DNA of 34,541 nt from Gammaproteobacteria bacterium (GCA_041623575.1 JBFJWO010000002.1:1-34541); one strand, 5' to 3'; positions 3,139-31,090 are shown, numbered from the stretch's first letter. Numbers and translations: made by a program. The notes: a model not told the origin generated them from the sequence alone.

Positions 3139-5295
3139 TCAGAAGCGGTAGCGAAAAGTCGCCATCACCGCGTGCAGGCTGTAGGACGGCGGCTCCTCGC
3201 CCAGGCTGAGCACCGTGGCCAGGGTGTCCGGCTCCACCGCGTCGAGCGCCCAGTCCTTCGACTCGTAGCGTTCGTACCACCAGGCTCCGTGCAGCTCGGG
3301 GCCCTCGTCGAACGTGTACGTGGCGTACAGCTTGACGGTGTGCAGGACGCTTTCGAGGTCCGGGAACGGCGCCCCGCCGACGGTGATCGCGCTGCGCGCG
3401 TTCGACACGGCGTAATCCACACCGACGTCGAGGCGCTTGCCCATAAGATCGCGGCGCTCGACACCGAAGCCGGCCGTGTCCACGGTGTCGCTCGTGCTCG
3501 CCAGCCAGTCCGGGCCGGCGAAGCTGCTGCTGCCCGCCTGGCGCGAATCGGTCTGCGTGCGCACGACGAACGCGTGCAGGCTCGTGTCGGGGGCGAGTTG
3601 CACGGCGAGATCGGCGTCCAGCCCGGTTTCGCCGGCCCGCGTGAGACCGACGGTGGAGTTGCTGTAGTCATCGCGGGCGACGCTCGCGCCGACGCCGAGA
3701 TCGACGCCGTCGCCCAGCAGCGTCGAAGTCCGCACGGCCATCAGCTCGCGGTCGCGATCGGCGAGATTGTACTTGCGCAGCGACGGGTTCTGCGGCGGGT
3801 CGGTGCTCGACAGCGGGTCGTAACCCGAGCCGTCGCGCCGTTCCCGGGCGATGCGCACATCGAAGCTCGTGCTGCGGGTCGCCCGCGCGGCGAGCTTGCC
3901 CCAGACGCTGTGCTCGCGCGTTTCCTCGACCTCCTGGAAGCTGCGCTGCACGGTCTCGCGATCGACCCCGGCGCTGACCCGCGTACCGCCCGCGAGCCGG
4001 TAGATGGCGCTGGCGCCGAGCGCATCCTCGGTGTAGTCGTAGGGCAGATTCGTGCGCGCGTCGCGCACCAGCGTATCGGTCGAAACCCACGGGAAGCTCG
4101 CCCGAGCGGTCTGGTTGTCGCGCTCGTTGCGACGCCACTCGGCATTCACCCGCAGTGCGTCGCTCAGGCGCGAGCTCACGCGCAGCGCGGCGTTGAGCGT
4201 GTCCACCCGCCCGTCCAGCGAATCGCGCGGCAGCGCCGCGACACCGAGGCCGTCGTTGGTGGTCGGCGCGAGAAAGTCCGCGTTCTGCTCCATGCGCCCG
4301 ACGGCGAGATCGCCGCTGAGGCGGGTCGCCTTGCTCAGCTCATAGCCGGCCGAGACCCGCAGCTGGTGGAACTCGTTGTCGGGTGGCAACGCCAGCTCAC
4401 CCTCGTCGGCGCCCGCCACCAGCGGCGTGAACGGGTTCTCCCAGCTGAGCGCCGGGTCGGCGTTCTCGAAGGCCGACCCGAGGTAGGCCAGGCGCAGCTG
4501 CCAGCGTTCGCGCGAATAGCCGGCGAACGCCTCGACTTCGCGCGTTTCATAGTCGATCGGCTGGACCAGTTGCGCGGCGTTGAACAGGAAGGCACCGGCC
4601 GTGCGCCGGCGGCCTTCCGTCGTCTCCCTGCGCACGTCGACGCCGAAGTCCCAGAACTTGGTGGCGATCAGCCGAACCCCGATCTCGGCGCGCCTGCGCT
4701 CGGTGTCGAGATCGACGCCGCGCAGGCTCGAGGCAAGCGCGCTCATCCCGGCGGTGCTGCCCGCCGTCACCCAGCCGGCCGGCAGGTCGAGGTCGGCACC
4801 CCCGCTGCCCACGTATGGCGTCCTGGCGCTGTCCGAGAGCAGGTGCGGAATCTCGTCGTAGCGCAGGCGCAGCCCGTAGCTGCCCTGCACGCCGCCCTCG
4901 ATGTCCACGGTAGTGCGCGGCGCGAACGGGCCCGGGTCGAGGGAAAAGTCGGTCACGCTCAGGTCGAGATAGCCGGCCTCCTCGCCACGCCAGCGCGCAC
5001 TGGCGCCGACCAGCGCGAACACGCCCTCCTCGTCGTAACCGGTGTACTCGCCGAACCTGGCCGAGTCGCGGGAGATCTGCCCGCCGGCGACGGAGACGGT
5101 CGCGTCGACACCGGTCTCGAACTCGCAGAACTTGCAGCGCCAGCCGGACGTGTCTACCGCAGCCGGCGCGGAGGCGGCGGACTCGGCCGCGTCCGGCTGT
5201 GCACTCTCGGGGGTGTCCGGTGCCTGGGCCAGCGCCATGCCACTCGCTACGGACAGCGCTACCGAGATCCCGGCCTTGCCAAGCGGGTACCGCAT
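3139..5295 (-). CDS. mtrB: MtrB/PioB-family decahaem-associated outer-membrane porin, 718 aa
   Basis: Signal peptide MRYPLGKAGISVALSVASGMALAQA. N-terminal CXXC (WRCKFCEF, Cys54/Cys57) as in MtrB. Long beta-barrel-like sequence rich in Y/G/D/R, with the OMP-type aromatic terminus ...ATFRYRF. The start lies 6 nt after the mtrA stop. Confidence 0.9.
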   Translation of the reverse strand: MRYPLGKAGISVALSVASGMALAQAPDTPESAQPDAAESAASAPAAVDTSGWRCKFCEFETGVDATVSVAGGQISRDSARFGEYTGYDEEGVFALVGASARWRGEEAGYLDLSVTDFSLDPGPFAPRTTVDIEGGVQGSYGLRLRYDEIPHLLSDSARTPYVGSGGADLDLPAGWVTAGSTAGMSALASSLRGVDLDTERRRAEIGVRLIATKFWDFGVDVRRETTEGRRRTAGAFLFNAAQLVQPIDYETREVEAFAGYSRERWQLRLAYLGSAFENADPALSWENPFTPLVAGADEGELALPPDNEFHQLRVSAGYELSKATRLSGDLAVGRMEQNADFLAPTTNDGLGVAALPRDSLDGRVDTLNAALRVSSRLSDALRVNAEWRRNERDNQTARASFPWVSTDTLVRDARTNLPYDYTEDALGASAIYRLAGGTRVSAGVDRETVQRSFQEVEETREHSVWGKLAARATRSTSFDVRIARERRDGSGYDPLSSTDPPQNPSLRKYNLADRDRELMAVRTSTLLGDGVDLGVGASVARDDYSNSTVGLTRAGETGLDADLAVQLAPDTSLHAFVVRTQTDSRQAGSSSFAGPDWLASTSDTVDTAGFGVERRDLMGKRLDVGVDYAVSNARSAITVGGAPFPDLESVLHTVKLYATYTFDEGPELHGAWWYERYESKDWALDAVEPDTLATVLSLGEEPPSYSLHAVMATFRYRF

Positions 5296-5301
5296 GCTTC
5301 G

Positions 5302-6270
5302 CTACCTCATCAGTTTCACGCCGGAGGGATGGTTGGACCCGTGCACCTGCGAGTGGCAGTTGAGGCAAGCGGCGCCCAGCAGGAACGCCGAGGGCGAACC
5401 GCCGCCGCCCACGACGCCGGCCGGACCGTGGGGCACACTGGGATGGCCGCGTTGCGAATGACACTGCTGGCACAGCAGCGGCGGGCGGCGTACCAGCAGC
5501 GCCGGGTGCACCGAGCCGTGCGGTGCGTGGCACAGCGCGCAATCCTCGGCGACCGGCGCGTGCTCCCACAGGAACGGCCCGCGCTTGTCCGCGTGGCAGG
5601 CGTAGCAGGTCTGGTTGAGCGTCGGCCGTGCCAGCAGGTCGTCGGTCATGGCGCCGTGCGGGTCGTGGCAATCGCTGCAGGCCAGGTGCCCGAAACGCAC
5701 CGGGTGCGCCGAGGGCTTGTGGAAATCGGCGCGGGCGCGGCGGTGGCAGGCGTAGCACACGTCGTCCTGCTTGGTGCGCGCAAGCACCGGGTCGGCGGTG
5801 ACGTGGATGCGGTGGCAGTTCGCACAGGCGACGTCGGCCCCCTCGTGGGCGCTGCCGTGCCAGCCGATGCGCGCCCCGCGCGTGTGGCAGTCGAGGCAGA
5901 TACCGTTCTCCGCCGCCGGGTCGTCGGGACGTGAGGCGCCGAAGTAGAGCATGGGCTGGCGAATCTCGCCGTCGCGCAGCTTGCGCTTGCCATGCTCGCC
6001 GACCGGCCCGTGGCAGGCCTCGCACTGCAGCCCGGCGAAGGGCGTGCGCCCGTCGGCGGGCTGCGCATGGCGGGTGGCGAAGATCGGCAGCACCGGGAAC
6101 TCGGAGTCCTCGTCGTGACAGCGCAGGCAGGTATCGGCGCCGCGATCGGAATACTCGCGCGGCGTCTGCGCGTCTTGCGGTTCCGATTGGGCGTGCGAGC
6201 CGGCAACGCCCGCCAACCCGGCAAGCGCCGCCATGACGACCAGCAGGCGCATCGGCTGTTTTTTGTGCAT
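5302..6270 (-). CDS. mtrA: Periplasmic decahaem c-type cytochrome, MtrA/DmsE family, 322 aa
   Basis: Signal peptide MHKKQPMRLLVVMAALAGLAGVAGSHA. Ten CXXCH motifs: CLRCH, CEACH, CLDCH, CANCH, CYACH, CSDCH, CYACH, CALCH, CQQCH, CLNCH. Size and position (between mtrC and mtrB) are canonical. Confidence 0.95.
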   Translation of the reverse strand: MHKKQPMRLLVVMAALAGLAGVAGSHAQSEPQDAQTPREYSDRGADTCLRCHDEDSEFPVLPIFATRHAQPADGRTPFAGLQCEACHGPVGEHGKRKLRDGEIRQPMLYFGASRPDDPAAENGICLDCHTRGARIGWHGSAHEGADVACANCHRIHVTADPVLARTKQDDVCYACHRRARADFHKPSAHPVRFGHLACSDCHDPHGAMTDDLLARPTLNQTCYACHADKRGPFLWEHAPVAEDCALCHAPHGSVHPALLVRRPPLLCQQCHSQRGHPSVPHGPAGVVGGGGSPSAFLLGAACLNCHSQVHGSNHPSGVKLMR

Positions 6271-6339
6271 CTACCGCTCTCGCGAAACGCGTGGCTGCAT
6301 CGACGGCGCACGCATCGCCGCTTCACCGACGCGACGCGC

Positions 6340-6365
6340 GGCGACGGTGGAAAAACACCGTCGCC
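6340..6365 (-). other. Intercistronic stem-loop between mtrC and mtrA
   Basis: Plus strand reads GGCGACGGTG-gaaaaa-CACCGTCGCC, a perfect 10-bp stem with a 6-nt loop. It starts 27 nt downstream of the mtrC stop on the transcript. No U-tract follows on the minus strand. Confidence 0.6.
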
Positions 6366-6392
6366 GCACGCCGGGAGCCTAGCGTACGCTGC

Positions 6393-8972
6393 TCAGGGGA
6401 TGTCCTCTCCGAACCCGCTCGAGTGCACCAGTTCGACGCTCGCGATCTTGCCGGGACCATGGCACACCGCACAGGTCTCGACGTTGGCCTCGATCGCCGC
6501 CTGGGTAACGCCGAACAACGCACCGTTGAGCTTCATGTGCTCTTCGGCGAGCGTGCCGTCGTGGCACGAGGAACACACCGCCGCGGTCGGCGAGATCTTG
6601 AGGTCGTCCGTGGGGTCGGCCACGCTGGCCGTCACCAGTTCCGCCAACGTCGGCGGGTTGCCCGGGTCGGGGTCGGTCAGGCCCGGCGGGACGCTGTTGA
6701 CGGTGCTGCCCTGGATACCGTTCTGGGCCGGCTCCGCCCAGTTCGCGCCGCCCTCGGCCGTGCGGTCCATGAGCTTGTAGGTGTCGGGCTCATGGCAGGT
6801 CTCGCACTTGGTGAGGTCGCCGGGGAAGCGCACCTCGGAGTAGTCGTGGATGCTACCGCGGAAACCGTACACCACGATGCCTTTCTCGCGGAAGCCGTGC
6901 GTCAGCGTACCGTCGGAGTTCGAGGACGCCGCCGCGTGCACGGCGTGGATCAGGCGCCGGAAGTCGATCGACTCCTCGGGCTTGCCGTCGCTGCCGCCGG
7001 TCGGCAGGCCGTCTCCGTCGCGCGGGCGGCGCGCGTAGTCGGTGCCGCTCGGGTTGTGGCACATCACGCACAGCTGTGCCTCGTCGCTGCGGTTGTTGCC
7101 GTGCAGGCTCAGCACGTCGTGACAGCGATCGCACTTGGCGACGATGTCCACCACCTCGCGCCGCGGCACCGGTTCACCGTCGTCGATGCCGAAGTAGGCC
7201 ACCACGGCCTTGACCGTGGCGCGCACGTCGTCCGACGGGTTCTCCGTCTGGAACACGCCGTCCACGCCCGCCCCCGCCGGGTGGCCCTCGATCGCGACCA
7301 CGCCGGTGCCCGACGCGCTGATCCCGGCGGGGTTGGCGGCGGTGACCGTACCGTCCGGCAGCGCCGGCATCGTCACGGTGTAGGTACCGTTACCGCTGAA
7401 CACGACCGAACCGGAGTTCCTCACGTTCACCGAGTTGGCGCGCGAGGGCCTGCTGCCGCTGCCACCGGCGTTGGTGTAGTCGACGGTGTTCCAGCTCGCC
7501 AGCACGTTGAGGCTTGCCGCGGGCGAGCGGAACTCGGGGTCGCCGTCGGCGCTGCGGATGCCGTAGGCGTTGCCGTGGAGATGGTTGGCCGCGCCCGTCG
7601 GGTCGGTGACGGAGAAGGTCACCGTGGGTGAGCCGCCCGGCTGGCAGGCGGCCTCGCCGTCGGTGTCCGCCCTGCCGTCGACAACGGCAATGCCGCAGAT
7701 CGACAGGATGTTGAACTGGAAGTTGGCCGCCGCGACCTTCTCGGGCACCTGGTGATCCGACGCCACGCTGCCGGCGATGATGCCGTTGGTGTGGCAGTTC
7801 ACGCAGGTGCTGTTGTCGGTCATGACGCCGCCGGGATGCCCGTCGACATCTGCCGAGGGGTTGAACTCGTTGCGGCCCTGCACGCCGAACTTGATGTGGT
7901 CGTGGCACGACCCGCAGGCCTCGATGCTCGGTGCGCTCTCCCAGTTGCCGCCCTGCGGCGTCTCGGGGTCGGAATCGCCGTGGCAGGTCGAGCAGTTGCG
8001 GATGTCCTGGGGAAAGACGATGTCGGAGAAGTCGTGCTTGGTGTTGCGGTAGCCCCAGATGGCGTACTCGCCCGTGCCATCGTCGCCGTTGCCCTCGACG
8101 AAGTCCGGGCCGCGTTCCACGCTCGGCAGGAACTCGCCGCGGTGGATCTTGTGGATCATGATCTTGAAGTCCACCGCGCCGCTGCTGCGCACGGCCGAGT
8201 GCGCCAGCCCGGGCGAGTTGTCCTTGGCCGGATCGATGCTGTCCGGATCGACCGAGCCGGGGTTGTGGCAGGTCACGCAGTATTTCACCTCGATGCGCGC
8301 GTCGTGCGCCTCGAGGCGGTCGTGGCAGTTGTTGCAGCGCGAGGTCTTGACGATCTCGCGGCTGGCGATCCCCGTGGTGGCGCCGTCCGACGGGCGGAAG
8401 GTGTACACGGCGTTGACCGCCGGCAGGTCGCCGCGGGTCTGGATACCGACCCGGTGGGTCAGCTGGGCGTCGAAACTCAGGTCGAGGGCGTTGCCGAAAG
8501 CGTCCACGCACGGCGCCGGACAGGTGACGTTGGCGACATCGGTGGCGAACGTGTAGCGGTACTCGCCGTCGCCTCGATCCACCAGGGTGCCGCTGTTCTC
8601 GCGCGTCGCCTGCACCGCGGTGCGGCCGTTGCCGGGGGCGCCGTTGGCCGACGAGGTCGCGGTGGTGACGATGTAGCTCTGCCAGTTGGGGCTCGGCGAG
8701 CCGGGCACGAGCTTGGCGATGGTGAATCGCAGGTCGTCGGTGCTCAGGCGATCGACGCCGAAGCCGTCCTGGTCGGTGACCCTGAACTCGACCACCGGCG
8801 CGCTGGCCACCGTTACCTTGCTGATCGTCATGGCCAGTTCGGTGGCTGCGCCCGCACCGCGCGGTCCCGCCGGGCCACGCTCCCCATCGCTGCCGTCGTC
8901 GCAGCCCGTCAGGGTGAGGGCGAAGGTCGCAATCGCGAACAGCGCCCGCAGCAGAACGTCATTGTTGGTCAT
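6393..8972 (-). CDS. mtrC: Outer-membrane decahaem c-type cytochrome lipoprotein, OmcA/MtrC family, 859 aa
   Basis: Track ORF 6393..8978 starts at a TTG. ATG 8972 is preferred because GAGGGGG lies 6 nt upstream of it. Lipobox is ALTLTG-C. Ten CXXCH motifs fall in two blocks of five: CNNCH, CVTCH, CSTCH, CGSCH, CVNCH, then CDRCH, CVMCH, CETCH, CSSCH, CAVCH. Each block follows a haem-free stretch of about 185-210 aa, which is the four-domain MtrC/OmcA layout. Confidence 0.9.
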   Translation of the reverse strand: MTNNDVLLRALFAIATFALTLTGCDDGSDGERGPAGPRGAGAATELAMTISKVTVASAPVVEFRVTDQDGFGVDRLSTDDLRFTIAKLVPGSPSPNWQSYIVTTATSSANGAPGNGRTAVQATRENSGTLVDRGDGEYRYTFATDVANVTCPAPCVDAFGNALDLSFDAQLTHRVGIQTRGDLPAVNAVYTFRPSDGATTGIASREIVKTSRCNNCHDRLEAHDARIEVKYCVTCHNPGSVDPDSIDPAKDNSPGLAHSAVRSSGAVDFKIMIHKIHRGEFLPSVERGPDFVEGNGDDGTGEYAIWGYRNTKHDFSDIVFPQDIRNCSTCHGDSDPETPQGGNWESAPSIEACGSCHDHIKFGVQGRNEFNPSADVDGHPGGVMTDNSTCVNCHTNGIIAGSVASDHQVPEKVAAANFQFNILSICGIAVVDGRADTDGEAACQPGGSPTVTFSVTDPTGAANHLHGNAYGIRSADGDPEFRSPAASLNVLASWNTVDYTNAGGSGSRPSRANSVNVRNSGSVVFSGNGTYTVTMPALPDGTVTAANPAGISASGTGVVAIEGHPAGAGVDGVFQTENPSDDVRATVKAVVAYFGIDDGEPVPRREVVDIVAKCDRCHDVLSLHGNNRSDEAQLCVMCHNPSGTDYARRPRDGDGLPTGGSDGKPEESIDFRRLIHAVHAAASSNSDGTLTHGFREKGIVVYGFRGSIHDYSEVRFPGDLTKCETCHEPDTYKLMDRTAEGGANWAEPAQNGIQGSTVNSVPPGLTDPDPGNPPTLAELVTASVADPTDDLKISPTAAVCSSCHDGTLAEEHMKLNGALFGVTQAAIEANVETCAVCHGPGKIASVELVHSSGFGEDIP

Positions 8973-9040
8973 CGCCAACCCCCTCTGAGTGGTTGTTCTT
9001 CCCCCCGCGTTACTTTCGGCCAGACGGCCGCACTAGCGCA

Positions 9041-9054
9041 CTGACTTGGATCAA
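9041..9054. promoter_or_regulatory. FNR/CRP-superfamily-like box (CTGAC-TTGG-ATCAA), proximal to mtrC
   Basis: Matches 8 of 10 positions of TTGAT-N4-ATCAA. The centre is about 75 nt upstream of the mtrC ATG. That fits a class II (-41.5) promoter with a short leader. Confidence 0.4.
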
Positions 9055-9085
9055 TCGCCGGCCAAGTACCCGACGCGTGACTTGC

Positions 9086-9099
9086 ATGATCTGGATCAA
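9086..9099. promoter_or_regulatory. FNR/CRP-superfamily-like box (ATGAT-CTGG-ATCAA), proximal to the cytochrome c4/cymA operon
   Basis: Matches 9 of 10 positions of TTGAT-N4-ATCAA. TATCCT at 9123..9128 sits where a -10 would be if the box is centred at -41.5. The centre is about 110 nt upstream of ATG 9203. Confidence 0.5.
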
Positions 9100-9202
9100 C
9101 CGTTGACCGGGCCACCCGGTCTTATCCTGCGTGCCGAGAAGATCGTCTTGGTCGCTCGAGCCATCGCACGCAGGGCGACCCCACCACAGGAGGAGTACTG
9201 CA

Positions 9203-9811
9203 ATGTCGACGCGCTCCCTGTCGCTGGTAGTGGCCGCAGGCTTGTTGGCCCTTGGCGGTGCGCTCGCCGCGGCCGAGGACATCGCCCGCGGCTGCATGGA
9301 CTGCCATGGCCAGGACGGCCTCAGCACCGAGCCGGACGTGCCGGTCATCGCAGGCTACTCGGCGCAGTACATCATCGACTCGATGATCGCCTACCGGGAG
9401 GGGGAGCGACCCGCGACCGAGTCCAAGTACCGCCACGGCGACACAAGCCGTGCGCCGACCGACATGAAGGCGATCGCCGACAAGCTCGGCGAGGCCGATA
9501 CCGAGGCGGCGGCCAAGTTCTTCGCCGCGCGCGAGTTCGTCCCCCGCAAGCAGACCTTCGATGCGGCCAAGGCGGCCCGGGGCGCGAAAATCCACGACGA
9601 CGAATGCGAAAAGTGCCACGAGGACGGTGGCACCGTGGCCGAAGACGACGCCGGCATCCTCGGCGGGCAGTGGATGAAGTACCTCGAGCACGCCTTCAGC
9701 GAATACGCCAGCGGCAAACGCTCGATGCCGAAAAAGATGCAGCCGAAGATGGACAAGCTGGACGCCGCCGACGTCGAGGCGTTGATCCACTACTACGGCA
9801 GCTTGCAGTAG
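9203..9811 (+). CDS. Exported dihaem cytochrome c, c4-like, 202 aa
   Basis: ATG 9203 lies in frame within track ORF 9131..9811, with AGGAGGAG 7 nt upstream. Signal peptide MSTRSLSLVVAAGLLALGGALAAA. Two CXXCH motifs (CMDCH, CEKCH). Each half ends with a c4-like helix (PVIAGYSAQYIIDSMIAYREGER; LDAADVEALIHYYGS). Confidence 0.85.
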   Translation: MSTRSLSLVVAAGLLALGGALAAAEDIARGCMDCHGQDGLSTEPDVPVIAGYSAQYIIDSMIAYREGERPATESKYRHGDTSRAPTDMKAIADKLGEADTEAAAKFFAAREFVPRKQTFDAAKAARGAKIHDDECEKCHEDGGTVAEDDAGILGGQWMKYLEHAFSEYASGKRSMPKKMQPKMDKLDAADVEALIHYYGSLQ

Positions 9812-9860
9812 ACGCCGCTCCGACACCACCCGAAGCCCGCAACAGCCGCGGAGACCAGCC

Positions 9861-10445
9861 ATGACCGACGACGATCAGACCGGGCGCTGGGCGCGGCTCT
9901 GGCGCCGCCCGAAATCACGCTGGCTGCTCGGCATCCCGCTCGGCGCGCTGCTGTTCTTCGCCGCCGGCGTGGTCGCCTGGGGCGGTTTCAACTGGTCGCT
10001 GGAGCTGACCAACACCGAGGCGTTCTGTATCTCATGCCACGAGATGCGCGACTTCGTCTACGAGGAATACAAGCAGACCAGCCACTACAACAATCGCAGC
10101 GGCGTGCGCGCCACCTGCCCGGACTGTCACGTGCCGCGCGAATGGGTGCACAAGGTGGTGCGCAAGATCCGCGCGAGCAACGAGCTGTATCACAAGGTGA
10201 TGGGGACGATCGACACGCCTGAAAAGTTCGAGGCCCAGCGCCTGACGATGGCCAAACGGGTGTGGGCGTCGATGAAGGCCACGGACTCGCGCGAGTGCCG
10301 CAACTGCCACTCGCTCGAGTCGATGAACCTCGAGCTGCAGGACAAGAGCGCGCGCCGCCGCCACGACGCCGAGCGCATGCGCGAGAAGGACGAAACCTGC
10401 ATCGACTGCCACCAGGGCATCGCCCACAAGGAACCCGAGGAGTAG
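9861..10445 (+). CDS. cymA: Membrane-anchored tetrahaem cytochrome c, NapC/NirT/CymA family (quinol dehydrogenase), 194 aa
   Basis: N-terminal TM helix WLLGIPLGALLFFAAGVVAWGGF. Four CXXCH motifs (CISCH, CPDCH, CRNCH, CIDCH) with family-typical spacing. GGAGA lies upstream of ATG 9861. Confidence 0.9.
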   Translation: MTDDDQTGRWARLWRRPKSRWLLGIPLGALLFFAAGVVAWGGFNWSLELTNTEAFCISCHEMRDFVYEEYKQTSHYNNRSGVRATCPDCHVPREWVHKVVRKIRASNELYHKVMGTIDTPEKFEAQRLTMAKRVWASMKATDSRECRNCHSLESMNLELQDKSARRRHDAERMREKDETCIDCHQGIAHKEPEE

Positions 10446-12145: not shown

Positions 12146-12694
12146 CTAGAAGCGCTGCACGAACCCGACGTTGTAGAAAACGATGTCCTCGTCCTCGACC
12201 GGGATGAAGTCGATCTCGAAGCGCAGCAGCGAGCGGGCGCCGATCGCGTAGTTGCCACCGAAGCCGACGAAGGCCTCGCTGCCCGAATCGCTGCTCGACG
12301 CGTTGGCAACGCGCGAATCGCTGTCCCACTCGAGAATGCCGAGCTTGCCGAACAGCCCCGCGTCCGAGCGCAGGCTGGCCGTGGCGACCAGGCTCAGGTA
12401 GATCGCCGAGACCTCGAGCGAGGCGCCGTCGCCCTCGGCCTCGCCGTAGTCCTGGAAGCCCAACTCGGCAGCCAGCACTTCGGTGAAGGCGTAGCCGCCG
12501 AACAGGCTGAACCCGACATCGGAGTCGTCGGTGTCGTCGTAGCTCGCCAACCCGGCGGCACCGCCGACATAGAAGCTGCCGCCGCCGGCCCCGGGGCGGG
12601 ACACGCGGATGTCGCTCGAAACCGTCTGCGCCGACACCGCGGCGGTCAACAGAGGCAACAGGGCCAGCGTCAGCAATTGCAGGGTACGGTTCAT
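12146..12694 (-). CDS. Small outer-membrane beta-barrel protein (OmpA-like/opacity-type barrel), 182 aa
   Basis: ATG 12694 lies in frame within track ORF 12146..12769. Signal peptide MNRTLQLLTLALLPLLTAAVSAQ. Alternating beta-strand pattern, with the C-terminus ...YNVGFVQRF ending in Phe. Confidence 0.7.
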   Translation of the reverse strand: MNRTLQLLTLALLPLLTAAVSAQTVSSDIRVSRPGAGGGSFYVGGAAGLASYDDTDDSDVGFSLFGGYAFTEVLAAELGFQDYGEAEGDGASLEVSAIYLSLVATASLRSDAGLFGKLGILEWDSDSRVANASSSDSGSEAFVGFGGNYAIGARSLLRFEIDFIPVEDEDIVFYNVGFVQRF

Positions 12695-12788
12695 GATCGG
12701 TTCTCGCTCGTGATCGGTGTTGCATGGCACCGCGGGTTCCCGTGGCGACGCCACGGGAACACCGCGCAAGGGCGCAGCCGCGCTCTCG

Positions 12789-13397
12789 CTAGATGCCGAA
12801 CAGGGACTTCTTGGCCGTCTTGCGGATCTCCTGCTCGTCGGCCCACTCCACGATCCCCGTCTGCACGTGCAGCAGTTTCAACGTGAACTTGTAGTACACG
12901 TCCTTGTCGCCGGAATCGCGCTTGACGATGCTCGACAGGTTGCCGTACATCATGTACTCGGCACCGACCTGCTGGCCGCGCCGCGCCGCAGTGGCATCGC
13001 TGACGTTGCCGCTCTCGTTCTGGTAGTCGAGTTGTTTCTCCAGCGCCGCCACCTTGGTCATGTCGACGAAGCGGAACTTGCCCGAGCGCAGCAGGCGCGT
13101 GGAGATCGTGTCGGTGACCGACTCGGTGTCGATGTGCTCCGAGGTCTTGTTCTTGACGGTGTCGACGAACATGACCGGTCGGCGATCGGCCGTCACCTGG
13201 ACGATCGGCGGAAACGACAGCAGCGAGTCCACCATCTTGGTCGCGATCTGCTGCAGATCGGTGGAGCCGAAACCGGTGGTCGTGGTTTCGACCGCCCCCG
13301 CGTCGCCGTAGCGAACGGTACTGGAACACCCCGTGACACCACCTGCCAGCGCGGTACCGACCACGGCCAGGCCGAGATAGTTAACAAATCGCAACAT
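12789..13397 (-). CDS. lpoB: LpoB-family (COG3417) lipoprotein, 202 aa
   Basis: ATG 13397 lies in frame within track ORF 12789..13760. Signal and lipobox MLRFVNYLGLAVVGTALAGGVTG-C. The body (GSTDLQQIATKMVDSLL...VDTVKNKTSEHIDTESVTDTI...YKFTLKLLHVQTGIVEW) matches the LpoB family from memory. Confidence 0.75.
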   Translation of the reverse strand: MLRFVNYLGLAVVGTALAGGVTGCSSTVRYGDAGAVETTTTGFGSTDLQQIATKMVDSLLSFPPIVQVTADRRPVMFVDTVKNKTSEHIDTESVTDTISTRLLRSGKFRFVDMTKVAALEKQLDYQNESGNVSDATAARRGQQVGAEYMMYGNLSSIVKRDSGDKDVYYKFTLKLLHVQTGIVEWADEQEIRKTAKKSLFGI

Positions 13398-13813
13398 TAC
13401 AGTTCCCTCACGTTGACCTTGTACGTCGTTACCGTCGGGTTGGGGGCCAGCGCCCGCATGCCCTTCTGGCCGAAGCCGTTCAGCAACAGCGGCGTCCAGG
13501 CGCCCGACCCGGCTTCCACTTCGAAGTCGGCATCGTCGAACCAGGAGAAGCGATACTGGATGCGCTTGTCGGTCGACGTCAGGTTGGCCAGCACGACGTT
13601 GACCTCCAGCAGCCCGCCGTTGAGGCGCGTGCGCATGTCCCGGATGATCACGTTGTTGGCCAGCGATTCGTTGTGGATGACCAGGTGCTTGGCGAACTCG
13701 GGATCGGCGCCCGGCGTGCCCGTGGCCTCCATTCCCGACGTCGCGCAGCCCGCCAACCACAGCGCCGCCGCCAGCGGCGCGAGCGAGCGAATCAGTTTCA
13801 CGTTACACCTCAT
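13397..13813 (-). CDS. ycfL: YcfL-family (DUF1425) lipoprotein, 138 aa
   Basis: ATG 13813 lies in frame within track ORF 13397..14278. Lipobox ALWLAG-C. Contains ...LEVNVVLANLTSTDKRIQYRFSWFD... Its stop overlaps the lpoB start (TAATG). Confidence 0.65.
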   Translation of the reverse strand: MRCNVKLIRSLAPLAAALWLAGCATSGMEATGTPGADPEFAKHLVIHNESLANNVIIRDMRTRLNGGLLEVNVVLANLTSTDKRIQYRFSWFDDADFEVEAGSGAWTPLLLNGFGQKGMRALAPNPTVTTYKVNVREL

Positions 13814-13836
13814 TGGCGTTACGCCAGTGCGTCGAA

Positions 13837-15264
13837 TCATAGAACAACAGACGAAACACGCATCATACCACCCGTGAATACCACGTTCAGGATGGTGCGG
13901 CGCTGCTTCTCGACCACGATCGTCGCCGTGTCGCTGGCGACGCCGTTGCGCAGCGTCAACGTGTGCTGACCGGGCGGCAGCGACGCGCGCAGGATCTGCG
14001 CCTCGTTCGGCAGGGTCAGCCAGCTGCGCAGGTCCGCGTTCTCCGTGACGAGGTTGAAGATGTTCGCCGCCACGCTGCCGAGCAACCCGAACTGCTCGCC
14101 CGACTGTCGCGTCGTCTCGACCTTGGCCGCGACCCGCAGTACCTGGCGAGTCAGCATGCCCGGCAACTGTTCCTGCAGCGCTTTCGCCGCCAGCGCCTGC
14201 ACGTTCACGATCGGGCTGGTCGTGCCGAGCGCGCCCGACCCGGCCGCGGTCACCGTGAGCGGGGAGGTGTAGCGCCACTGGTAGGGGTAGGTCGGGAACG
14301 CCACCGCGTAGATGCCCCTGAAGGTGTAGATCGGGATCTTGACCTCCTGCTTCGCCGGCAGGTACCCGCTGTCGAAAAACACGATCAGCTCACCCTGCGC
14401 GGGGTCGAGCCCGACGTCCTGGCCGCCGAAGCGCTTCTCGAACAGCTCCAGGTCCTCCTGCATGGACAGGGCCCGCGCAAGGCGCAGCACGTCGCGCTGC
14501 AGGTAGCGATTGTCGGGAAAGATCTCCAGCGCCTTGCGGTAGTCGATGTAGGCGTCGTTGGGCTGCCCGGCGATCTCCCAGATGACCCCGGAGACGTAAA
14601 ACGTGTAGGCGTTCTGGAACGAGTTCTTGACCCGCCGGGCGACCTCGCTCACCTGCGAGAACGCGTCCATGAAACCGCCGTTGCCCGCCATTGCCTCGCG
14701 CTGCCTGGCAAGGCCCTTGTCCACCTCCTCGGCGTGCTCGGCGAGCGCCAGTTCCTGGTGCTCGTTGGCGCGGCGCACCTCGACCGTCGCCGCCTCGAGG
14801 TCGCCCGTGAACAGGTAGTTGAGGGCCTGGTAGTGATGCAGGAACACGCGCTCGTAGGGTTTTTCCTCGTAGGGGATGGCGTTGTCGTTGAGCAGGATCG
14901 CGGCCCCGCTGGCCATGGTGCCGGTGGCGGTGATGCGGGCCTTGCGCTCGTTGCTTTCGGCGACCGCGATGGCCGCCTTGTAGTCGGGGATGCTGGCCTG
15001 GTACTCGCGCACGATCTGCGAGCTGCGGCCGCGCTCCAGCAGGTAGAGGATGCGATCGGCGCTGTCGCGGTGTTTGTCGAGCGCCCGCTGCGCGGCCTGG
15101 TATTGCCCGCTGTCGAGCTGCCGCTTGACGGTCTCGATCTGCTGCGGGTAGGGAGTGAACACCGCGGTGCTGGCACAACCACCCGCCACGACCGCCAGCA
15201 GCCCGGCAGCGCAGACCGTGATGCACGGCGCGCAGCGCCTGGCGAAGCTGCCCACCGGGCTCAC
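13837..15264 (-). CDS. COG3014-like lipoprotein with TPR-like helical N-terminal region, 475 aa
   Basis: GTG 15264 lies in frame within track ORF 13837..16062; the upstream Arg-rich part was rejected. Lipobox LAVVAGG-C. Its start overlaps the stop of the upstream gene (GTGA). The family call is from memory of lpoB/ycfL neighbourhoods. Confidence 0.6.
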   Translation of the reverse strand: MSPVGSFARRCAPCITVCAAGLLAVVAGGCASTAVFTPYPQQIETVKRQLDSGQYQAAQRALDKHRDSADRILYLLERGRSSQIVREYQASIPDYKAAIAVAESNERKARITATGTMASGAAILLNDNAIPYEEKPYERVFLHHYQALNYLFTGDLEAATVEVRRANEHQELALAEHAEEVDKGLARQREAMAGNGGFMDAFSQVSEVARRVKNSFQNAYTFYVSGVIWEIAGQPNDAYIDYRKALEIFPDNRYLQRDVLRLARALSMQEDLELFEKRFGGQDVGLDPAQGELIVFFDSGYLPAKQEVKIPIYTFRGIYAVAFPTYPYQWRYTSPLTVTAAGSGALGTTSPIVNVQALAAKALQEQLPGMLTRQVLRVAAKVETTRQSGEQFGLLGSVAANIFNLVTENADLRSWLTLPNEAQILRASLPPGQHTLTLRNGVASDTATIVVEKQRRTILNVVFTGGMMRVSSVVL

Positions 15265-15983
15265 CACCGGATCGGTTGCTCGCTCGAGCCCGGCGTCGGC
15301 GCCGCGCCCCGGCGCGTGTCCGGTGGCGTTGCGGGCTCGCCGCCCGCCGGGCGGTTCTCGGGGAAGACACCGTGCACGATGCGCGTGACGATTTCCTCGA
15401 CCGTACGCGCCTGCAGCTCGGCGACGAAATCCGCACCGCGATAGTCGCTGTCGGATCCCGCGCGGCGCGTGTGCGTCACCGAGACGGTGTCGGCCACCGC
15501 TACGGCGCCGCCGCGGGAGGCGAGCAACCGGAAGCTGACGTCCATCTTGCCCGTGAACACGCTTTCCAGCGTTTCGGTGTAGGCGCGTGTGCGCTTTTCG
15601 CCCGCCGCGCGCATCTGCACGATGCGCCCGGTCAGCAGGTACTCGGCCCCGAGGCGCGAGCCGAGGCGCAGCACCGCATCGCCGGCGGCGGTATCGATCA
15701 GCGACGCTTCGTTCTCCAGTGCCGCGACCCGGTCGCGTTCCACGACCGTGAACCGCCCGCTGCGGGTCAGCGACACGATCAGGTCGTCGCTCAAGCGCCG
15801 CGTGGTCACGTCGACGTCGCCCACCACCAACACGTGGCCCGGGTTGACGAGAACCTTGGTGCCGCGGGTGTCGAACGACAGCACGGCCACGGTGGGACCG
15901 GCGGCGCTCGCCCACAGCGGCCAGGCGAGCGCCACGCCGGCCGCGAAGGCGCGAGCGGACCTGCACAGTGAAATCGATCTCAT
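15261..15983 (-). CDS. CsgG/HfaB-like exported protein, 240 aa
   Basis: ATG 15983 lies in frame within track ORF 15261..16046. Signal peptide ...ALAWPLWASA-AG, with no lipobox Cys. Contains PTVAVLSFDTRG...LIVSLTRSGRFTVVERDRVAALENE...GAEYLLTGRI, resembling the CsgG-family core. Pro-rich C-terminal tail. Confidence 0.6.
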   Translation of the reverse strand: MRSISLCRSARAFAAGVALAWPLWASAAGPTVAVLSFDTRGTKVLVNPGHVLVVGDVDVTTRRLSDDLIVSLTRSGRFTVVERDRVAALENEASLIDTAAGDAVLRLGSRLGAEYLLTGRIVQMRAAGEKRTRAYTETLESVFTGKMDVSFRLLASRGGAVAVADTVSVTHTRRAGSDSDYRGADFVAELQARTVEEIVTRIVHGVFPENRPAGGEPATPPDTRRGAAPTPGSSEQPIRW

Positions 15984-16339
15984 GCTGCCCCCCGCCGGCG
16001 GCGCTCGTGGTCGTTGGCTCGGGCCCGAACCTGTCGCGGACCGCACCCGGTAAATCTAACACGCGCCGGCAACGGCGTTCGGGCGAATCGGCTCACGCGG
16101 GGCACGGGCTGCGCATCTTGCCGGTCCCCGTTCGACGGGGATCGGCCCGAGTACTGACGACGCCAGACCCTTGCGGGCCACAGCCCGCGGCGAACGCTCC
16201 CCGGTCGCGCAGGGATCGCCTCGTCCACGACCGTCGCGGCACCGCCCGAGCGGCCTGGCGCCCGCGCATCGCGACCGCCCCTGCCCCGCCCGGGTCGCTT
16301 GTGCTATTTTTCGCCGCACCATCGTGGAGCGGCTCGCGC

Positions 16340-28577: not shown

Positions 28578-30172
28578 CCACGTGCGGCGAGATCCTGCCG
28601 CGCCTGCTCGCGGGCTACGGCATCGACACCGTGTTCGGCATCCCCGGCGTGCACACCGTCGACCTGTACCGCGGGTTGCCGGACAGCGGACTGCGACACG
28701 TCACGCCCCGCCACGAGCAGGGCGCCGGCTTCATGGCCGACGGCTTCGCCCGCGCGGGCGCCCGTCCGGCGGCCTGCTTCATCATCTCCGGCCCCGGCAT
28801 GACCAACATCGTCACCGCCATGGGCCAGGCCTACGCCGACTCGGTGCCGATGCTGGTCATCTCCAGCGTCAACGCGACCCACGAGCTCGGGCTCGGCGAG
28901 GGGCGCCTGCACGAGTTGCCCGACCAGCAGGCGCTGGTTCGCGGGGTATCGGTGTTCAGCCACAGCGTGCTGCGCGCCGCGGAACTGCCGTGGGTGATGG
29001 CGCGCGCCTTCGCGGTGTTCGACAGCGCCCGCCCGGGGCCGGTGCACATCGAGCTGCCGCTCGACGTGATCGCGGCGCCGGCCGAGGGGCTCGACCTTGC
29101 GCCCCATCGCACGCTCGCACGACCGGGGCCGGACCCGGCGGCGGTGGCTCGCGCGATCGCCCTGCTGAGGCGCGCCGAACGTCCGTTCGTCGTTCTCGGC
29201 GGCGGCACGCAGGACGCGCCCGGCGCCGCACTCGCGCTGGTCGAGCGCCTGGGCGCTCCCACGGCGCTCACCATCAACGCCAAGGGCGTGCTGCCGCCGC
29301 GCCACCCGCTCAGCCTCGGCAGCACCCTGCCGCAGCCGCCGGTGATGGCGGCGCTGCGCAACGCCGACGTGGTGCTGGCAATCGGCACCGAGCTGGCCGA
29401 AACCGACACCTTGCTGTTCGCCGCCCGGCTCGAGCTGACCGGCAAGGTGATCCGGATCGACGTCGACCCCGGGCAACTGACGCGCAACGCCCTGCCCGAG
29501 GTTGCCCTCTGCGCCGACGCCGGCCTCGCCATGACCGCCCTGGCCGAGGCGCTGGAGGGTCACCGCCCGCTCGAGGACGCCTCGGAGCACGTCGCCCACC
29601 TGCGCGCCGAAGCCGAGGCCGCGCTGCCGGCAGCCTATCGCACGCACGGGCGGATTCTCGAGGCGGTCGCCACGACGCTGCCCGGGGTGATCCTCGTCGG
29701 CGACTCGACGCAACCGGTCTACGGCGGCAACCTCGCTTACGAGCCGCAGGCGCCGCGGCGCTGGTTCAACTCGTCCACCGGCTACGGGACGCTGGGCTAC
29801 GGGCTGCCCGCCGCGTTCGGCGCCAAGCTCGCCCGCCCCGAGGCGCCCGTCGTCGCCCTGATCGGTGACGGCGGGCTGCAGTTCACCATCGGCGAGCTGG
29901 CGGCGGGCGTGGAGCTGGGGCTCGCGGTACCGGTGCTGGTCTGGAACAACCGCGGCTACGGCGAGATCAAGCGCTACATGCTGGAGAAAGCGATCACGCC
30001 GCTCGGCGTCGACATCTACACCCCGGACCTGCTCGCCATCGCGGCCGGCTTCGGCTGTCGGACCGCGCGCCCGCCGGACCTCGCCGGGCTCGAAACCGCG
30101 TTACGCGAGGCGCACGGCGCCGGGCGCCCGACGTTGATCGAGATCGACGAGGCGACCGCGCTGGGCTGGTAA
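28574..30172 (+). CDS. ThDP-dependent 2-oxoacid decarboxylase, similar to 5-guanidino-2-oxopentanoate decarboxylase (AruI)-type enzymes, 532 aa
   Basis: ATG 28574 is the C-terminal third of the artefactual 1551-aa track ORF 25517..30172. Its start overlaps the stop of the dehydrogenase gene (ATGA). ThDP motif IGDGGLQFTIGELAAGVELGLAVPVLVWNNRGYG. N-terminal IDTVFGIPGVHTVDLYRGL. The substrate assignment is tentative. Confidence 0.8.
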   Translation: MTTCGEILPRLLAGYGIDTVFGIPGVHTVDLYRGLPDSGLRHVTPRHEQGAGFMADGFARAGARPAACFIISGPGMTNIVTAMGQAYADSVPMLVISSVNATHELGLGEGRLHELPDQQALVRGVSVFSHSVLRAAELPWVMARAFAVFDSARPGPVHIELPLDVIAAPAEGLDLAPHRTLARPGPDPAAVARAIALLRRAERPFVVLGGGTQDAPGAALALVERLGAPTALTINAKGVLPPRHPLSLGSTLPQPPVMAALRNADVVLAIGTELAETDTLLFAARLELTGKVIRIDVDPGQLTRNALPEVALCADAGLAMTALAEALEGHRPLEDASEHVAHLRAEAEAALPAAYRTHGRILEAVATTLPGVILVGDSTQPVYGGNLAYEPQAPRRWFNSSTGYGTLGYGLPAAFGAKLARPEAPVVALIGDGGLQFTIGELAAGVELGLAVPVLVWNNRGYGEIKRYMLEKAITPLGVDIYTPDLLAIAAGFGCRTARPPDLAGLETALREAHGAGRPTLIEIDEATALGW

Positions 30173-30253: not shown

Positions 30254-30886
30254 TCACTGCAGTGGGTAGTTTCGCCCGGGGCGTGCGCGGTAAGCGGGCA
30301 GCGCCAGCCTGAGCCGGATCGCGAGCGCGCGCAGCACGAAGCAGGCGGCGAATCCCGCCAGCCCGGGTGCCGGCGCCGGGACGTCCGCCGCGATCAGTGC
30401 AACGTACACGCCGGACCCGAGCGCCGCCGCGGTCGCATAGATCTCGCGGCGCAGGATGAGCGGGATCTCGTTGCAGATGACGTCGCGAATCACGCCCCCG
30501 AAGGTCGCCGTCATCACGCCCATCAGCGTCGCTACCGGCCAGGCGACGCCCGTCTCGAGGGCCACCGCGGCGCCGGTGACGGCGAACAGCGACAGGCCGG
30601 CCGCGTCGGCCCACAGCAACACGGGGTAGCGGCGGTGGATGTAGGGGGCGGCGAAGAACAGCAGCGCCGCCACCGAGAAACACACCAGCAGGTACTCGGG
30701 CCGGGCGATCCAGAACACCGCGCGGTCGAGCAACAGGTCGCGCAGGGTCCCGCCGCCGACGCCGGTCACCGCGCCGACCAGCACGAACCCCACCGCGTCC
30801 ATCTCCTTGCGCGAAGCGACGAGTGCACCGCTGGCCGCGAAGACCGCGACGCCCGCAAGGTCGAGCCAGTGAACGACTTCGATCAA
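30254..30886 (-). CDS. TRIC-type cation channel / UPF0126 (YadS/YicG-like) membrane protein, 210 aa
   Basis: Track ORF. Two internal repeats each carry the glycine motif (GVGGGTLRDLLL and TFGGVIRDVICNE). Confidence 0.85.
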   Translation of the reverse strand: MIEVVHWLDLAGVAVFAASGALVASRKEMDAVGFVLVGAVTGVGGGTLRDLLLDRAVFWIARPEYLLVCFSVAALLFFAAPYIHRRYPVLLWADAAGLSLFAVTGAAVALETGVAWPVATLMGVMTATFGGVIRDVICNEIPLILRREIYATAAALGSGVYVALIAADVPAPAPGLAGFAACFVLRALAIRLRLALPAYRARPGRNYPLQ

Positions 30887-31090
30887 CGCCGAACGCTCCC
30901 GGCTGCGACAAGGGGGCGCAATATGCCACAGGCGACCGTCGTCATGAACCCTCCCCGACCGCCTGGCGCGCCCGGCGAGACCGACGACATTGCTCCGGGC
31001 CTGCGCGCGAGTCGCGCGTCGTCACGGCGGCGGCGCGTTTGGTCTATCATGGCGCCGCGTCGACGACACCTACACAAGCGAGGATGGGCG

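Follow-up and report, generated by a model that had tools for sequence, protein, structure and literature searches.

Can a single compact gene cluster supply an uncultured gammaproteobacterium with every step needed to pass electrons from its quinol pool to the cell surface? The question is raised by a DNA stretch of 34,541 nucleotides from a Gammaproteobacteria bacterium (GCA_041623575.1, JBFJWO010000002.1:1-34541), hereafter the window, which is an entire 34.5-kb NCBI contig. A first-pass annotation of this DNA had proposed a complete Mtr-type porin-cytochrome module for extracellular electron transfer (EET) at positions 3139-10445. Our analysis confirms that observation and supports its interpretation; the accompanying claim of novelty is not supported, since this type of cassette has already been published (PMC8805035). 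The region is almost certainly a genuine Mtr/PdsA/CymA conduit. The fuller reading, to which we assign a probability of roughly 0.7, is that it forms an intact mtrCAB-pdsA-cymA EET module, native in composition to its host, that would run outward as an anaerobic electron outlet.

Gene content and protein families of the cluster

Four things are shown directly here: which genes are present, the families to which they belong, the fold, and the retention of the cofactor ligands. A listing of open reading frames (ORFs), together with counting of heme motifs, placed mtrC-mtrA-mtrB on the minus strand and genes for a diheme and a tetraheme cytochrome, transcribed divergently, on the plus strand. The features of the region are as follows.

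3139-5295, minus strand: mtrB, 718 aa, MtrB/PioB outer-membrane beta-barrel sheath
5302-6270, minus strand: mtrA, 322 aa, periplasmic decaheme cytochrome threaded through MtrB
6332-6373, minus strand: hairpin in the mtrC-mtrA spacer, from an inverted repeat and fold energy
6393-8972, minus strand: mtrC, 859 aa, OmcA/MtrC-family surface decaheme lipoprotein
8973-9202, no strand: mtrC/pdsA divergent promoter region, 230 nt, non-coding
9086-9099, no strand: FNR/CRP-family-like palindrome ATGATCTGGATCAA, 9 of 10 positions of TTGAT-N4-ATCAA
9203-9811, plus strand: pdsA-like diheme cytochrome c shuttle, 202 aa, periplasmic, two CXXCH motifs
9861-10445, plus strand: cymA, NapC/NirT-family tetraheme quinol dehydrogenase, 194 aa, inner-membrane anchored, four CXXCH motifs

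The gene order, protein sizes, ten plus ten CXXCH motifs, mtrB CKFC motif, aromatic C terminus, and 6-nt mtrA-mtrB gap (5296-5301) described in the first-pass annotation were all found at these coordinates, and the divergent genes encode an exported diheme protein and a membrane-anchored tetraheme NapC/NirT protein as it had stated. Its count of 26 heme motifs holds (10 + 10 + 2 + 4); the motifs are carried by four of the five genes, with none in mtrB. The gap between mtrC and mtrA is 122 nt, and all three genes share a strand. Adjacency of mtrC, mtrA, and mtrB in one cluster, which Baker et al. used as their search criterion (2022, mBio, PMC8805035), is thus present here. None of the five ORFs is disrupted. 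An exact-match search with the MtrB protein gave no hit, but an MtrC twin at 99% led to a second assembly, GCA_041619775.1 (locus L001). Its genes are arranged as in the window, and the two are 99.6% identical in nucleotides along 12.6 kb; the layout is therefore not an assembly artifact. Between the two strains, cymA differs by four synonymous and no nonsynonymous changes and pdsA is identical, which is consistent with the genes having been kept intact.

Hidden Markov models for the three families named in the annotation (OmcA/MtrC, DmsE/MtrA, and MtrB/PioB) all score well past their curated cut-offs. The mtrB product matches PF11854 (MtrB_PioB) with an E-value of 1e-167 and 560 bits (cut-off 23) over profile positions 3-635 of 635, reaches 514 bits with NCBIfam TIGR03509 (cut-off 240), and aligns over residues 44-717 with the Shewanella baltica MtrB chain 6R2Q_B (E = 2e-96, 31% identity). 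The protein contains only two cysteines, C54-K-F-C57, has no heme motif, and ends in ...TFRYRF. Wee et al. reportedly proposed in 2014 that an N-terminal CXXC in MtrB is a signature of metal-reducing Gammaproteobacteria. This motif is kept in 31 of 32 aligned gammaproteobacterial homologs, a Halioglobus protein being the sole exception, and is missing from all three betaproteobacterial homologs aligned. In Shewanella oneidensis, the first Cys of the motif, C42, is required for Fe(III) reduction (PMC12175506). The hairpin that follows mtrB was not significant when folded against shuffles (z-score -1.45).

The mtrA product, which carries ten CXXCH motifs behind a Sec-type N terminus, scores 302 bits with TIGR03508 (DmsE/MtrA, cut-off 192) and aligns over residues 38-321 with S. 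baltica chain 6R2Q_A (E = 5e-96, 50% identity). Upstream of mtrA, the spacer hairpin has 18-nt arms and a 6-nt loop, is GC-rich, and is devoid of a U tract. Its folding energy is -45.2 kcal/mol (z-score -5.0), and none of 200 shuffles folds as well. The hairpin is possibly a processing, stability, or partial-termination element, and it might set the ratio of MtrC to MtrAB transcripts.

The mtrC product is 859 aa long from an ATG (861 aa from an upstream TTG) and contains ten CXXCH motifs and a lipobox, L-T-G-C24. It scores 505 bits with TIGR03507 (OmcA/MtrC, cut-off 209), and PF22112 and two stretches of PF22113 match as well. An AlphaFold2 model, built from a 44-sequence alignment, had a mean predicted local distance difference test score (pLDDT) of 77.7 and a predicted TM-score (pTM) of 0.71. 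A Foldseek search of this model against the PDB returned OmcA, UndA, MtrC, and MtrF only (E = 5e-35 to 5e-12), with nothing else below 1e-3; the TM-scores, normalized to the target and taken over full-length chains, were 0.60-0.72, in keeping with the four-domain fold of this family. Across 44 homologs there is little or no variation at the lipobox Cys, the 20 heme cysteines, the ten proximal histidines, and roughly ten additional histidines, and it is plausible that these additional histidines are the distal heme ligands. The OmcA/MtrC family model has 672 positions, and the protein exceeds it by about 190 residues. Its widest inter-heme gap lies between hemes 5 and 6, and model confidence is low between hemes 2 and 3.

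MtrC also has two pairs of non-heme cysteines, one at 151/155 (CPAPC, domain I), which is present in the clade consensus, and one at 426/443 in domain III. The domain III pair has a 16-residue spacing here as compared to about nine in the clade consensus, and Shewanella MtrC has CX8C at the corresponding domain. It may correspond to the disulfide found in domain III of the Shewanella protein.

The diheme ORF spans 9131-9811 on the plus strand, with a likely start at the ATG at 9203 (202 aa) that matches the gene call on the twin contig. The product has two CXXCH motifs and a signal peptide. The PdsA model NF049874 matches it from position 11 to the last of its 198 positions, with 167.6 bits and an E-value of 3e-49. 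NF049874 is drawn narrowly, as an "exception" model; pdsA products of the Group 3 genomes of Baker et al. (Sinimarinibacterium and Marinobacter W62) score 161-163 bits on it, and the cluster-linked diheme proteins overall, from Group 3 and other relatives, score 161-177 bits. Because these proteins score alike, we assign the diheme protein, by sequence, as a PdsA homolog of the Group 3 type. The earlier label "c4-like" is adjusted to PdsA homolog on the strength of the NF049874 match.

The tetraheme protein matches PF03264 (NapC/NirT) with an E-value of 4.5e-74 and 248 bits (cut-off 24) and has four CXXCH motifs behind a single N-terminal hydrophobic anchor, LLGIPLGALLFFAAGVVAWGGF. Its nearest homologs are cymA products encoded beside other mtrCAB clusters, for example that of Shewanella salipaludis (68% identity). 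NapC, NirT, or TorC proper was rejected as an identity: the scores fall under the equivalog cut-offs (NapC 260 bits vs 349, TorC 244 vs 478), and no nap, nir, or tor genes, and hence no cognate reductase genes, are found among the neighbors of cymA.

By homology, the carriers would act in the following order. CymA, anchored in the inner membrane, would oxidize quinol, and the soluble diheme PdsA would ferry the electrons across the periplasm. The MtrA decaheme inside the MtrB barrel would then conduct them through the outer membrane to the surface lipoprotein MtrC, which would donate them to Fe(III)/Mn(IV) oxides, electrodes, shuttles, or other insoluble or extracellular acceptors.

Known systems, relatives, and mosaic ancestry

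A "hybrid" EET pathway composed of CymA, PdsA, and MtrCAB has been shown genetically in Vibrio natriegens, and the window resembles it in gene content: the same five components are present and no others, with no mtrDEF, omcA, fccA, or cctA near the cluster. The two differ in their hosts, as the window comes from a GC-rich (about 70%) uncultured gammaproteobacterium and not a Vibrio. They differ also in that the window PdsA reaches only 168 bits against the NF049874 cut-off of 330 and in that the window MtrC extends about 190 residues beyond its family model. Baker et al. describe the mtrCAB/pdsA/cymA cluster as a self-sufficient unit that would provide a recipient with a full EET suite, find pdsA in all Group 2 and most gammaproteobacterial Group 3 members, and ascribe the patchy distribution of mtrCAB to horizontal transfer (PMC8805035). 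The proposal of the first-pass annotation that the region specifies the whole route from the quinol pool to the cell surface fits both the V. natriegens pathway and this full EET suite (PMC8805035).

The Shewanella MtrCAB complex (S. baltica 6R2Q, S. oneidensis MR-1) is homologous, with the same mtrC-mtrA-mtrB order and the same MtrC fold, and Shewanella likewise has a CymA-type quinol dehydrogenase and a non-heme Cys pair in MtrC domain III. In Shewanella, however, the periplasmic carriers are FccA and CctA in place of PdsA; in the window, cymA lies inside the cluster and there are no mtrDEF or omcA paralogs. The MtoAB/PioAB conduits share the MtrA/MtrB-type core, some with a CymA-like partner, but lack MtrC and use MtoD rather than PdsA (PMC8805035), whereas the window has MtrC and the MtrB CXXC. 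Assignment to an MtoAB/PioAB conduit was rejected, as the gene next upstream of mtrA belongs to the MtrC family and the periplasmic partner matches PdsA.

The model that identifies MtrA, TIGR03508, spans DmsE as well, which gives some ground to the explanation that this is a porin-cytochrome module serving a purpose other than EET, such as supplying a surface reductase in the manner of DmsEF, or a relic that is not expressed. We regard this as very improbable. The gene adjoining mtrAB, immediately upstream, encodes an MtrC-family lipoprotein rather than dmsAB, the five ORFs are intact, every heme ligand is conserved, the codon usage is native, and the cluster is kept in two strains. A dimethyl sulfoxide (DMSO)-reductase conduit of the DmsEF type was rejected, as no molybdopterin oxidoreductase domain occurs among the scanned window genes. 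The cluster is not a module of the DmsEF type, which the first-pass annotation had named as a possible refutation.

A scan of GTDB representative genomes gave 54 loci with MtrC relatives, of which at least 17 have the complete set of five genes together. The order seen in the window, with cymA-pdsA divergent from mtrCAB, recurs in several Marinobacter, Ectothiorhodospiraceae, and Chromatiaceae bins, while a collinear mtrCAB-pdsA-cymA order is found in Sinimarinibacterium, Shewanella salipaludis, and a Steroidobacteraceae bin. The genes that flank the cluster in the window are common to none of these five-gene loci. In metagenomes, MtrC relatives are abundant, with 1796 matches, the best 120 of which are at least 46% identical. 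The Group 3 members of Baker et al. (Marinobacter, Sinimarinibacterium, Thioalkalivibrio, Wenzhouxiangella, and unclassified Gammaproteobacteria) are like the window in gene content, gene orders, and non-conserved flanks, score equally on the PdsA model, and have the MtrB CXXC.

The position of the window relative to Group 3 comes from neighbor-joining trees that carry no bootstrap values and include no Group 2 reference. MtrA, MtrB, and MtrC of the window all fall in a clade made up only of metagenome-assembled genomes (MAGs), namely unclassified Gammaproteobacteria, a Chromatiaceae bin, Sulfuricaulis, and bins labeled Methylomirabilis and Steroidobacteraceae. Its sister clade includes Marinobacter W62 and Sinimarinibacterium, both of them Group 3 references; the betaproteobacterial (Ramlibacter-type) and Halioglobus clusters lie at a distance. 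With those references the window shares 34-36% identity in MtrB and 40-41% in MtrC.

The core and the accessory genes point to different closest relatives. The window MtrC is closest to those of three MAGs (L002-L004, 57-62% identity), in which the diheme protein is only 30-34% identical to that of the window and no cymA lies nearby. The nearest relatives of the window PdsA and CymA include the S. salipaludis proteins (57% and 68% identity, respectively) and those of an Enterobacterales MAG (compare loci L012, L013, and L027). From these identities the core and accessory genes seem to have recombined, giving a mosaic ancestry that fits the modular evolution described by Baker et al.

The S. 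salipaludis locus (L012) is itself unusual. Its MtrB is just 27% identical to that of the window and its MtrA is not one of the top-ranking matches to the MtrA chain of S. baltica 6R2Q, and its collinear cluster looks like a non-canonical Mtr cluster within Shewanella.

The host and the question of an island

The host appears to be an uncultured gammaproteobacterium near sulfur-oxidizing lineages, a placement made from one flanking gene because its RhlE helicase product is closest to homologs from such organisms: it is 77-80% identical to those of Thiohalobacter and Thiosocius and 78-79% identical to those of two Chromatiaceae MAGs. The RhlE-RRM gene pair is kept in a related metagenomic contig. 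The first-pass annotation had described the surrounding genes as those of an ordinary aerobic heterotroph. Genes of heterotroph type do occur in the window (xsc, TRAP and CitMHS transporters, and glutamate dehydrogenase), but the label itself is unproven, given the affinity of RhlE to sulfur-oxidizing Gammaproteobacteria. Its xsc call stands: positions 1-816, on the minus strand and running off the contig end, encode the N-terminal 272 aa of sulfoacetaldehyde acetyltransferase (Xsc), and NF005713 gives 444 bits over 248 of 592 profile positions.

This placement bears on a more specific form of the favored reading, in which electrons from sulfide or thiosulfate, rather than from the respiration of organic carbon, would flow outward to Fe(III)/Mn(IV) oxides. 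MtrCAB has been reported in cultivated thiosulfate oxidizers of the Sulfurifustaceae, Thiohalomonadaceae, and Ectothiorhodospiraceae, for which Fe(III)-dependent thiosulfate oxidation was proposed (PMC12545173), and both the RhlE affinity and the taxa of the MtrCAB clade fit. The 34.5-kb window, however, contains no sox, dsr, sqr, or fcc genes, and the taxonomic signal comes from a single flanking gene. We consider this version rather unlikely as stated; it is a sub-case of the outward module, with the same conduit and the same direction. The suggestion that EET may be unrecognised in this lineage was overstated, since the cassette and its patchy spread have been published and MtrCAB has already been reported in sediment Gammaproteobacteria MAGs and in thiosulfate oxidizers.

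The cluster does not look like a recent arrival. In agreement with the first-pass annotation, there is no tRNA in the window, the flanking genes that were scanned encode no integrase domain, and no repeat flanks the cluster, the repeats found being heme-motif codons or GC-rich low-complexity matches. Transposase domains are likewise absent from the scanned flanking genes. The composition comparison that it had suggested gave codon usage and tetranucleotide composition of the module that are indistinguishable from those of the rest of the contig. A recently acquired island was rejected on these grounds. No empty site is definable, as Thiohalobacter sp. COW1 and a JGI contig keep only the RhlE-RRM pair before synteny breaks, and as to carriage on plasmids, PLSDB gives one match only, a 2.1-Mb Photobacterium replicon at 26% identity, and so no evidence of copies borne by plasmids. 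Relatives have the cluster in a patchy pattern and with differing flanks, which still suggests horizontal spread long ago, and acquisition of the module, if any, would be old or from a donor of similar composition.

Elsewhere in the window, a run of envelope genes at 12146-16046 on the minus strand encodes an OmpA-like barrel, LpoB, a DUF1425 protein, and a TPR protein, together with a CsgG-like lipoprotein according to the gene calls on the twin contig. Weak LpoB and TPR homologs (27-30%) are also found upstream of an MtrC-like gene at another locus (L042, 4829-6665). The likeness is probably coincidental.

Control and direction of electron flow

The palindrome ATGATCTGGATCAA sits centrally in the divergent promoter region, in which a scan for the sigma-70 consensus gave no match; terminator-like sites occur at chance level only. 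Using TTGAT-N4-ATCAA with no more than one mismatch as the criterion for an FNR-type box, the 34.5-kb window contains two matches as compared to 0.12 expected. The other match, TTGATCGAGATCGA at 30134-30147, lies just downstream of a minus-strand gene at 30254-31021 that resembles PRK10578. When the 360 nt upstream of mtrC were compared across 33 mtrCAB loci, seven loci had ten boxes between them, as compared to 0.58 expected, an approximately 17-fold excess; the maximum in 300 shuffles was four. Besides the window, such boxes are found at L008, L013, L015, L017, L020, and L025. One of these loci (L017, Sulfuricaulis) has three boxes, one of them perfect. This enrichment suggests that some Mtr clusters are under the control of oxygen. 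In the window, both divergent transcription units would probably share an FNR-type, oxygen-responsive control site, and under such control the pathway would serve as an anaerobic electron outlet.

We infer both the FNR control and the outward direction. The presence of MtrC, the MtrB CXXC, and the FNR-like box in the divergent promoter lean toward outward flow. The caution of the first-pass annotation that direction cannot be read from sequence was well placed. MtrCAB can run in reverse (PMC8805035). In that case Fe(II), Mn(II), reduced minerals, or a cathode would be the electron source, and the electrons would enter through MtrC, MtrA, PdsA, and CymA to the quinone pool of a lithotroph. Such inward flow would agree with the closest MtrCAB relatives, which occur in bins labeled Sulfuricaulis, Chromatiaceae, Ectothiorhodospiraceae, Thiogranum, Methylomirabilis, and Nitrospiria, and with the flanking RhlE, which is nearest to homologs of sulfur oxidizers. 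The known oxidizing conduits MtoAB and PioAB, however, lack MtrC and have MtoD/MtoC instead of PdsA (PMC8805035), and the window MtrB retains the CXXC that is missing from betaproteobacterial homologs. An FNR-type box suggests anoxic induction, which is a poor fit to aerobic metal oxidation, and the window carries the heterotroph-type genes xsc, TRAP, CitMHS, and glutamate dehydrogenase. On balance, we judge inward flow to be improbable.

Several points weigh against an outward, anaerobic module. Besides the reversibility of MtrCAB (PMC8805035), the nearest relatives include bins of lithotrophic taxa (Sulfuricaulis, Chromatiaceae, and Thiogranum), and RhlE of the host is closest to that of Thiohalobacter. 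The box ATGATCTGGATCAA has one mismatch to TTGAT-N4-ATCAA, and most relatives are without such a box. The 167.6 bits of the diheme protein fall below the NF049874 cut-off of 330. In MtrC, the residue at +2 of the lipobox Cys is Asp (C-D-D-G; residues 24-25, 8898-8903), while Ser, Gly, or Thr occupies this position in 35 of 43 homologs. In Escherichia coli, Asp at +2 retains a lipoprotein in the inner membrane by the Lol-avoidance rule, which may not hold in this host. Finally, genes for cytochrome c maturation (ccm), quinone biosynthesis, and type II secretion lie outside the window.

A broader proposal, which we advance only tentatively and consider doubtful, is that the locus belongs to a distinct MtrCAB subgroup, so far without a name, which would be common among uncultured sediment Gammaproteobacteria near sulfur oxidizers. 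Such a subgroup may be marked by FNR-type control, by an enlarged MtrC (about 830-860 aa), and by PdsA and CymA partners that are mixed and matched. Its role may be sulfur oxidation coupled to Fe(III)/Mn(IV) reduction, or electron uptake, and not heterotrophic metal respiration.

These results do not change what is known of how Mtr systems work or spread. Only two leads go beyond the literature consulted: some clusters have FNR-like boxes upstream of mtrC, and the core and accessory genes are of mosaic ancestry. The five-gene cassette is compact and uses native codons, and it could be a portable bioelectrochemical part for GC-rich hosts. For the biology of the organism, the cluster adds one more uncultured gammaproteobacterial lineage that potentially exchanges electrons with minerals, which bears on the cycling of iron, manganese, and sulfur in sediments.

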